Positions 16,335-18,638 of a DNA stretch of 64,000 nt are shown here, in pieces (positions within the stretch are counted from its first letter, which is position 1; every line of letters starts with the position of its first letter). This DNA is from Escherichia coli (GTDB lineage: Bacteria; Pseudomonadota; Gammaproteobacteria; Enterobacterales; Enterobacteriaceae), in assembly GCF_050920415.1 (NCBI RefSeq), contig NZ_CP169309.1, one strand, 5' to 3'. A program made the position numbers and the translations under genes. Below the pieces are notes generated by a model. The model made no database searches and was not told the origin of the DNA. It saw only the letters and a list, made by a program, of their open reading frames with translations.

Positions 16335-17260
16335 TCTGCAACATACAGGTGCAGCCGGGGAATGATCAAACGAAGCGGCTGCGCCTGTGGTTTATAACGG
16401 TGTTGCACATTGTCGGCATCGTAATTTAACAACTCCCCAACGTCCGGCACGCCCGCGCCATTATCCCGATTAATCAGCGCAATAAGCGGCGTAGGGCAAG
16501 CGTGTTGTACTTGTTTTTGATCTCCCTTGTACCAGACGCGGGCAATCGGCTGCACCTTCACCGGACGTTTGATTTTTAACTTCGCGTCCTGTGGCAGGGT
16601 AGCAATATCCTGATACTCTCTCTCCAGTTTTCGTTGCCACTCTTCGCGCGTCCACGGTGCGACACTGCGCGGTGATTTCAGGCTTTTTTCCAGCTGTGCC
16701 AGGACTTCATCACGATGCAAATTCTTAATGATATGTTTATTGGCCCAGCCAAAACGTAAAGTGGCGGGGTCGTGCAGAACAGTGAGCGTTCGGTAAGCAT
16801 TAAGGGTGATCAGCCCCGGCAAATGACGATGCACCCATTCAAAACGCGCCGCTGTGGGGAGTTCTGACTCTACCGTGACGATATGTTCGAAAGTGGTTTT
16901 GAGTTGATTGATGCGCTGAATATGACTGACCAACGCTGCTTGCGAAAGGTTATCGACCTGGTAACACAACACGCCAGGCAGTCGAACAGCAGCCTTGCTG
17001 CTGCGATTTTCGGACTGTTGCTGAATAAACAAATGGCGGAAATGACGCAACGCCAGCGACTGCGCGTCGTTGCCCAGATGTTGCTTTACCTCAATACGAT
17101 TAAGCGGGTTATGCTCATCCTCTTTTTTTACCTCCGGCAAAGAGAACACGCGGGCAACCAGCAATTTGTGCTGTTCTAGCTCAGCGGCAAATGCAGCCAG
17201 TTCTTGTTCCATCTGGCGAAAGGTAGTGTTGAGTCGGTCTACGAGATCGTAACGCGCCAT
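16331..17260 (-). CDS. tus: DNA replication terminus site-binding protein Tus (309 aa)
   Basis: Recognised N-terminus [30 protein letters not shown] starts at ATG 17258-17260; the track ORF extends 53 codons upstream through the Ter site. Confidence 0.92.
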
Positions 17261-17267
17261 AATATTA

Positions 17268-17292
17268 ACCACTTTAGTTACAACATACTTTA
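17268..17292 (-). other. Replication terminator site TerB (Tus-binding), overlapping the tus promoter
   Basis: Minus-strand sequence AATAAAGTATGTTGTAACTAAAGTGG contains the conserved Ter core GTATGTTGTAACTAAAG; located 8-30 bp upstream of the tus start. Confidence 0.8.
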
Positions 17293-17336
17293 TTTTATAG
17301 CACAGTATCGACAGCCTGACCACCGTGCGCGTAATG

Positions 17337-18638
17337 TCAAGCAGAGGTAAATTGCGGGATGTTATGCCATAACGGCCAGCTAAACGAGAAGCGGGCACCC
17401 CCCAGTTCGCTGGTGTCACAATTAACCGTACCGCCCATTGCTAGTGCTATAGAGTGGACAATCGCCAACCCCAGCCCGCAGCCGCCGGTTGAGCGATCCC
17501 GGCTGGGATCGAGGCGAACAAAAGGTTCAAAGATATGTTCGCGGTTTTCTGGGGCAATCCCTGGGCCATCATCCTCAACAATTAATGTCGCTCTATTTCC
17601 CGACAGTAGCAGGCTGGTTTCAACCGTTGAGTGACAGTAGCGCAGGGCGTTATTGAGCAAATTATCCAGCACGCGCTCCATTAAGCGCATATCCAACGCC
17701 GCATAATGGCCTTGCGCGAGCGTTTTAATCCGTACCGTTTTATCGGGCGTTACTGCCTGAATGTCTGCCAGATGCGTTGACAGCCACAACGGCAGGTCTG
17801 GTTCGCTAAGATGAAGCTCGTTTTGTGGGCGATCGAGTCGGGCATAAGTCAGCAACTCTTCAATTAAAGCTTCAAGTTGACTGATATCACGATTCAATGC
17901 CTGGGATTCGGCGGCGCTCAGGTTATCGCTCATTTCCAGTCGATAACGCAAGCGCACTAACGGCGTTCGCAGTTCGTGAGCGATTCCGTCAATAAGCTGT
18001 TTTTTGCTGGCGATCAAGGCGTTGATATTGTCCGCCATCTGGTTAAATGCGACACCAAGTCGTTCAAAGCTTGAATCCTCATCAAAGTGGATACGCTCAT
18101 TGAGATGCCCATCGCCAAATCGTTGCGCCGCTGCTTCCAGTTTTAACATATCCTGCCAGTGCGGACGCATCCAGATAAACACCGGAAAGGCGAGGGAAAT
18201 GGCAATAAAAGCGATTAGGGCGATATCCAGTAATCGCATCTGATGGAGGTAATAAAGATAAGGAACAGGACCAACTGCCAGCACGTAGTGGCTGCGCGGG
18301 ATGCGTTGCAAAAAAGTGTACTGATCGTCCAGGGCGACAATTTCGCCGCCACGCAGCCGGTGCATGGAAATATCATCAAGATGATATTTACTCAGCGGCT
18401 CGACACGCAGATCGAAAGAGAGATTTAAATCCATCTCTTTCAGCGTCTTACCCCAATCGTGTGGGGGGATCTCACGCAATTCGCTGCGCATCAGATACAG
18501 CGAACTGTTCATCAAATCATCCAGCGACTGTTTGCCCGCGCGTTCGGCGGTAAATTTGTACACCAGCCCAACCAGCAGAGACATCACAAGGAAGCAGACA
18601 AACAATAACAGGTAAAACTGGATAAACAGTTTTTTCAT
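17337..18638 (-). CDS. rstB: Two-component sensor histidine kinase RstB (433 aa)
   Basis: N-terminal membrane segment, H-box HELRTPL, HATPase motifs (DDGPGI, GGCGLGL); downstream of rstA. Confidence 0.9.

Follow-up and report, generated by a model that had tools for sequence, protein, structure and literature searches.

The window, i.e. the whole 64-kb stretch of Escherichia coli DNA analysed here, carries rstB and tus one after the other on the minus strand. According to the list of open reading frames and direct reading of the letters, the rstB stop codon TGA (17339..17337) and the tus start codon ATG (17260..17258) enclose a gap of 76 bp (17261-17336), and not of 77 bp as the sequence-only reading had it; the corresponding gap in K-12 has 75 bp. 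RefSeq annotates the neighbours as rstB and tus, and holds no feature for the Ter site itself at this locus. The site lies in the intergenic gap about 10 bp from the tus start, which is the location that distinguishes TerB. On its other side, tus is convergent with fumC and the 3' ends of the two genes overlap by 4 bp (16331-16334); K-12 shows the same overlap (tus ends at 1685188 and fumC at 1685185). The features of the locus are as follows:

17337..18638, minus strand: rstB, the upstream neighbour, whose stop codon bounds the gap
17322..17317, minus strand: putative weak -35 element, TGGTCA (3/6), 17 bp upstream of the -10 element
17303..17316, minus strand: promoter spacer, unchanged in length but differing from K-12 by 8 clustered substitutions (17307-17309, 17311-17314 and 17316)
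17302..17294, minus strand: putative extended -10 element, TGcTATAAA, with TG at 17302-17301 and the hexamer TATAAA at 17299..17294
17293..17271, minus strand: TerB in its full 23-bp register, ATAAAGTATGTTGTAACTAAAGT, with position 1 at 17293 and position 23 at 17271
17289..17291, minus strand: A-run, Ter positions 5-3, one A more than in K-12 by alignment
17288: G-C(6) base pair, G on the minus and C(6) on the plus strand, read directly
17272..17288, minus strand: Ter positions 6-22, GTATGTTGTAACTAAAG, exact and unique in the window
17277..17284, minus strand: invariant core GTTGTAAC, Ter positions 10-17, exact match
17261..17270, minus strand: 10-bp spacer GGTTAATATT from Ter position 23 to the tus ATG, nearly invariant among alleles
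16331..17260, minus strand: tus (309 aa; open reading frame list and RefSeq annotation), encoding the protein that binds the Ter site

The plus strand at 17260-17300 reads taatattaaccactttagttacaacatactttattttata, and its reverse complement holds the 17-mer GTATGTTGTAACTAAAG. In the 64-kb window this 17-mer occurs in a single exact copy, on the minus strand at 17272-17288, which bears out the claim that a Ter core lies on the minus strand of the rstB-tus gap. A search allowing up to 3 mismatches returned no second match in the window (shuffled sequences lead one to expect 0.09), and by simple arithmetic the chance expectation for an exact 17-mer is about 1e-5 per 128 kb of two-strand sequence. 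The 23-bp Ter numbering used here is anchored on G6. In this register the conserved core ATGTTGTAACTA of the asymmetric 23-bp site is present, matching both K-12 TerB and K-12 TerA at 16/16 of positions 6-21. As G6 lies on the minus strand at 17288, the lock cytosine C(6) is the plus-strand C at the same coordinate. Exact alignment, the check proposed together with that claim, disclosed no mismatch either at G-C(6) or in GTTGTAAC.

The window contains three other GTTGTAAC octamers, at 988, 36336 and 41687, which were considered as further Ter sites and rejected, as they match at only 10-11 of the 16 core positions. Two of the three lack G6, and two of the three are counterparts of octamers located in coding sequences in K-12.

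K-12 TerB, extracted from the genome at NC_000913 1684226, reads AATAAGTATGTTGTAACTAAAGT and is printed identically in PMC4499146. This site (NC_000913.3 1684226-1684248) occupies the same locus between the same neighbours, with the same strand relation to tus, the same 10-bp distance to the ATG (10 bp is also the K-12 distance given in PMC8707476) and the same orientation relative to TerC and dif. From Ter position 4 to position 23, G-C(6) and the core included, it is identical to the window site. Judged by sequence and position, the latter is the positional orthologue of K-12 TerB, as the sequence-only reading had claimed in naming it.

From the -10-like element through Ter and past the tus start, the alignment with K-12 departs from identity by one inserted A, which is also the sole difference within the 39 bp at 17261-17299 (from the ATG through Ter to the -10 region). 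The extra A belongs to the A-run 5' of G6 (gap of 76 versus 75 bp). It moves the upstream sequence by 1 bp, so that positions 2-3 are TA in the window and AT in K-12, and it places the Tus site 1 bp further from the -10 element. The other difference lies upstream of Ter, where the promoter spacer carries 8 substitutions relative to K-12; the same spacer haplotype was found in strain CNR65D6.

The 62-mer at 17251-17312, which represents the extra-A allele, is present in exact form in 260 of the 5,426 complete E. coli genomes. The extra A is therefore not an error, and we rejected sequencing error as its explanation. The 23-mer ATAAAGTATGTTGTAACTAAAGT is found at the same locus also in NZ_CP098223.1, the closest complete genome. 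A 301-bp query spanning the gap had matches in 5,423 of the 5,426 complete E. coli genomes, as a rule one in each, and the flanks are annotated as rstB and tus in 5,421 of the 5,426 (RefSeq). The 301-bp stretch reaches at least 99% identity in only 12 genomes, and 5,035 fall between 90 and 95%. Exact copies of the K-12-type 56-mer are carried by 2,328 genomes, and those of one 56-mer with G at position 7 by 794. One of the approximately 5,400 rstB-TerB-tus junction matches is on a plasmid-typed record; the replicon may have been mis-assigned, or a plasmid may carry a large piece of the chromosome.

When 11 diverse E. coli alleles were aligned, G6, positions 8-23, the TGTGCTATAAA stretch and GGTCA proved invariant, Ter position 7 was either T or G, and the distal part of the gap was variable. 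The core GTTGTAAC is the same in all 11 alleles and in K-12 TerA, TerB and TerC. TerB of Nissle 1917, ST131 and O157 (Al Ain) likewise occupies the same locus with an invariant core. Ter position 7, corresponding to 17287, is T in the window and in K-12, whereas many TerB alleles of other lineages have G in its place (GGATGTTG...), like TerC; the exact 17-mer GTATGTTGTAACTAAAG is thus not universal in E. coli. Goodall et al. reported that all primary ter sites are conserved across the E. coli phylogroups (PMC8347550).

Over its whole length, the window shares about 97% identity with K-12 and 99.1% with NZ_CP098223.1. When it was compared with K-12 in 165 bins of 300 bp (mean divergence 2.8%, sd 1.9), the bin at 17101-17400 showed 8.7% divergence, the second highest value. 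The divergence of tus is 5.7%, versus 2.8% for rstB and fumC. Within 17100-17199 there are 12 differences, which yield the Tus substitutions I23A and H27E. The 5' end of tus, the gap and the 3' end of rstB look like a distinct, possibly imported haplotype. An invariant site amid variable surroundings is the pattern that would be expected of a functional protein-binding site within a promoter. In NZ_CP098223.1, an IS200/IS605 tnpA insertion of about 700 bp (1708-2413 of the compared segment) truncates clcB; the window is without this insertion, and the corresponding point lies at about 35032-35038.

In K-12, TerB lies within the tus promoter and mediates Tus autoregulation (PMC8707476 and PMC8347550, citing Roecklein et al. 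1991); PMC8347550 is the survey by Goodall et al. cited above. The sequence-only reading had likewise named the site as that of Tus autoregulation. The arrangement in the window is consistent with this, as conservation extends from the -10 region to the ATG and takes in the putative extended -10 element. The latter directly adjoins Ter position 1 in the window, and its sequence is invariant in all 11 aligned alleles; the hexamer TAAAAT, which overlaps it, is an alternative -10. The GGTCA of the putative -35 element is likewise kept in 11/11 alleles, including one with an ISEcp1 insertion. This last allele comes from NZ_CP147084.1 (strain KTa005, from river water), in which ISEcp1 lies immediately upstream of the tus promoter (1538-3046 of the compared segment). 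Genes for an MBL-fold hydrolase and the ISEcp1 transposase stand in the place of rstB, homology to the window begins just before the GGTCA, and TerB and tus are intact.

A consensus scan of 17150-17450 for sigma-70 promoters and terminators, which requires T at position 6 of the -10 hexamer and at least 4/6 matches in the -35, called no promoter and no terminator. The promoter placement is therefore a reading of a weak -35 together with an extended -10 element. The searchable literature yielded no mapped tus transcription start; the matches to "tus" in the RegulonDB paper (PMC2760140) refer to transcription units (TUs) and were discarded. [quoted passage not shown] An RNA element in the gap was also considered and rejected, as 17100-17500 had no Rfam match at E <= 1; RNA folding of the gap was no better than that of shuffled sequences (z = +0.68).

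The genome that carries the Ter site also carries an intact cognate tus. The encoded protein is identical at 303 of 309 residues (98%) to K-12 Tus and to the crystallised protein (PDB 1ECR, 2EWJ, 2I05 and 2I06), the substitutions being I23A, H27E, H116R, K119Q, A221T and N225D. Residues E49, I79, F140, H144, G149 and R198 are unchanged. These are the residues of the C(6) pocket and of fork arrest that Mulcair et al. reportedly singled out in 2006, and none of the six substitutions falls among them. Arg198 of Tus is mentioned in PMC8707476, which depicts the pocket residues in a figure, and in PMC6067765 Tus-F140A serves only as a reagent.

The window aligns colinearly, but inverted, with the K-12 segment 1.637-1.701 Mb, and dif (about 1.591 Mb), TerC (1.609 Mb) and TerA (1.342 Mb) are nearby on the K-12 map. 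The sequence-only reading had placed the window in the chromosome terminus region and taken the site as fixing its orientation relative to fork travel, and both statements agree with what was found. On the plus strand, the GC skew is +0.029 over the 64-kb window and the cumulative skew climbs almost throughout, with positive values in 40 of 64 1-kb bins (p = 0.06). Within the window, KOPS (GGGNAGGG) are distributed 4:0 and Chi sites 8:4 in favour of the plus strand. Together, skew, KOPS and Chi indicate that the plus strand is the leading strand, which makes the normal fork run from low to high coordinates and puts dif past the high end; each of these indicators is weak in 64 kb, and the orientation rests on their agreement and on synteny. 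NZ_CP098223.1 shares the layout of K-12 described below: dif is at 2438248, TerC at 2454102 (plus) and TerB at 2509902 (plus), and between dif and TerB KOPS are 0:3 and the skew is -0.034.

In K-12, from the sequence of which TerA, TerC and dif were taken, TerA lies at 1341767 (minus), dif at about 1590777, TerC at 1609157 (plus) and TerB at 1684226 (plus), and the G6 end of each of the three Ter sites faces dif. The non-permissive face of a Ter site is its low-numbered, G-C(6) end (PMC4499146). In the window, the G6 end of TerB faces high coordinates, i.e. towards TerC and dif, and the permissive face is turned towards the origin-side fork, which is the orientation of a fork-trap component. 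The normal, anticlockwise-equivalent fork arriving from the tus/fumC side meets the permissive face. Given the fork direction and synteny, a fork reaching the site from the rstB side, after running past dif and TerC, comes up against the non-permissive face.

The high-coordinate end of the window (49700-64000) is occupied by a lambdoid prophage of low GC content (0.42-0.48), at the position of the Qin prophage in K-12. Its best matches are annotated as exonuclease, LexA-family repressor and zeta toxin. Coverage of the prophage reaches 80% or more in only 4 genomes, and NZ_CP098223.1 is without a prophage there. Three RNA features were located in this prophage:

53335-53386, minus strand: DicF sRNA
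57781-57898, minus strand: IS3-type frameshift pseudoknot (ALIL)
62954-63128, plus strand: sok antitoxin RNA

The other Ter sites of K-12 resemble the window site without sharing its place. TerA and TerC have the same G6 and the same A8-A20 stretch, including GTTGTAAC. TerA matches the window site at 20/23 positions and is identical to it at positions 5-23, but it lies at another locus in the opposite orientation; in TerC, also at another locus, position 7 is G and positions 21-23 are different. The tus promoter overlaps with neither of them. In Salmonella, Yersinia, Proteus and Edwardsiella, a "vicinal" C(6) Ter site lies immediately upstream of tus and follows the same polarity logic (PMC8707476), and these vicinal Ter sites are 74-87% identical to TerB (Toft et al. 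2021). In type I traps the vicinal Ter is the innermost barrier, whereas in the window, as in K-12, TerC lies inside TerB (type II). The RTP-Ter system of Bacillus subtilis is likewise a polar fork barrier formed by a protein on an asymmetric site, with a terminator near rtp (see PMC13220808). However, both its protein and its DNA site are unrelated, and RTP binds as two dimers, without a C(6) base-flip lock.

Based on these observations, we conclude that the site is almost certainly TerB, a Tus-binding replication terminator of the E. coli fork trap, which doubles as operator of the tus promoter. No feature of the sequence speaks against this identity. By analogy with K-12, a Tus monomer would bind the site very tightly, and a fork entering from the tus side would strip Tus off. 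An overshot fork from the rstB side would unwind the DNA up to G-C(6), whereupon the freed C(6), the plus-strand C at 17288, would flip into the Tus pocket, lock the complex and arrest the helicase. PMC4499146 describes the same course of events: once C(6) has been set free by unwinding from the non-permissive side, it docks into Tus and the complex is locked. The G-C(6) pair is required for this, and its mutation abolishes permanent arrest (PMC4499146). [quoted passage not shown] Both high-affinity Tus binding and polar fork arrest are known for the K-12 sequence (PMC4499146, PMC8707476) and are predicted for the extra-A allele of the window. With the promoter placed as above, Ter adjoins the -10 element and the likely transcription start would fall within Ter, so that bound Tus would occlude RNA polymerase and tus would repress itself; such autorepression is expected here from the K-12 literature. 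The extra A falls among positions 1-5, which are not conserved, and its effect is most likely small.

How much of this function concerns replication may be debated. In both K-12 and NZ_CP098223.1, TerC is located on the dif side of TerB, between the two, and points the same way as TerB, so that TerB is a second-line barrier. If TerC, being nearer to dif, catches clockwise-equivalent forks before they reach TerB, the latter might cause little fork arrest in vivo and serve mainly or only as the tus operator. The overlap of the Ter site with the putative promoter fits such a role, and back-up Ter sites can, in the argument of Toft et al., largely be dispensed with (PMC8707476). On the other hand, the fork pausing, the strong ChIP-seq signal of Tus and the unobtainable ectopic TerB, all cited above, argue for a working barrier, and a mere operator needs neither G-C(6) nor the trap orientation, both of which are kept in every allele examined. 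We consider it unlikely that the site is mainly or only an operator, and the choice between operator and fork barrier is a matter of degree. That the site could be a chance or decayed Ter-like sequence devoid of function has next to no probability. Ter-like octamers do arise by chance, as the three other GTTGTAAC copies in the window illustrate, but these reach only 10-11 of the 16 core positions, whereas the site at 17272-17288 matches exactly at 17/17 positions against an expectation of about 1e-5. Moreover, its position is orthologous to that of K-12 TerB, and it does not vary between diverse strains within a locally divergent region. Exactness, orthology and conservation effectively refute this explanation.

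The extra A deserves separate consideration, as it might make the allele a weakened or altered Ter, if lock efficiency were lowered, or autorepression reset, by the altered base pairs 2-3 and by the displacement of the Tus site by 1 bp relative to the -10 element. At position 3 it replaces T by A, and the replisome has been found to slow before the lock at T(3)-A(5) of TerB (PMC4499146). The allele is furthermore accompanied by the 8-substitution spacer block and a divergent tus 5' end. However, A4, A5 and G6 are unchanged, as are the length of the spacer and both hexamers, and positions 1-5 differ even between TerA, TerB and TerC (AATTA, AATAA and ATATA, respectively). Nor are positions 1-5 known to be conserved across the functional sites of the TerA-J set. 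Being fixed in at least 260 complete genomes, the allele is also not obviously deleterious, and we regard an impaired or altered site as quite improbable. It is a long shot, too, that the extra A, the 8-substitution spacer and the clustered substitutions at the tus 5' end form a co-adapted haplotype that sets another Tus level or lock efficiency, with the raised divergence at TerB possibly reflecting recombination stimulated by fork arrest.

The preferred interpretation, TerB acting as both terminator and operator, leaves the textbook picture of TerB, of Tus and of the C(6) lock unchanged; TerB of E. coli is in itself already known, and apart from the length of the gap it had been correctly read from the sequence beforehand. 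Its value is that of a landmark: it assigns the window to the terminus region, to the left replichore side of dif and in inverted orientation relative to the K-12 map, and shows that normal fork travel runs from low to high coordinates, with dif past the high-coordinate end. What is mildly new is descriptive: TerB varies naturally, position 7 being either T or G and an extra A altering positions 2-3 in about 5% of complete genomes, whereas neither the core nor the spacing from Ter to the tus ATG changes.
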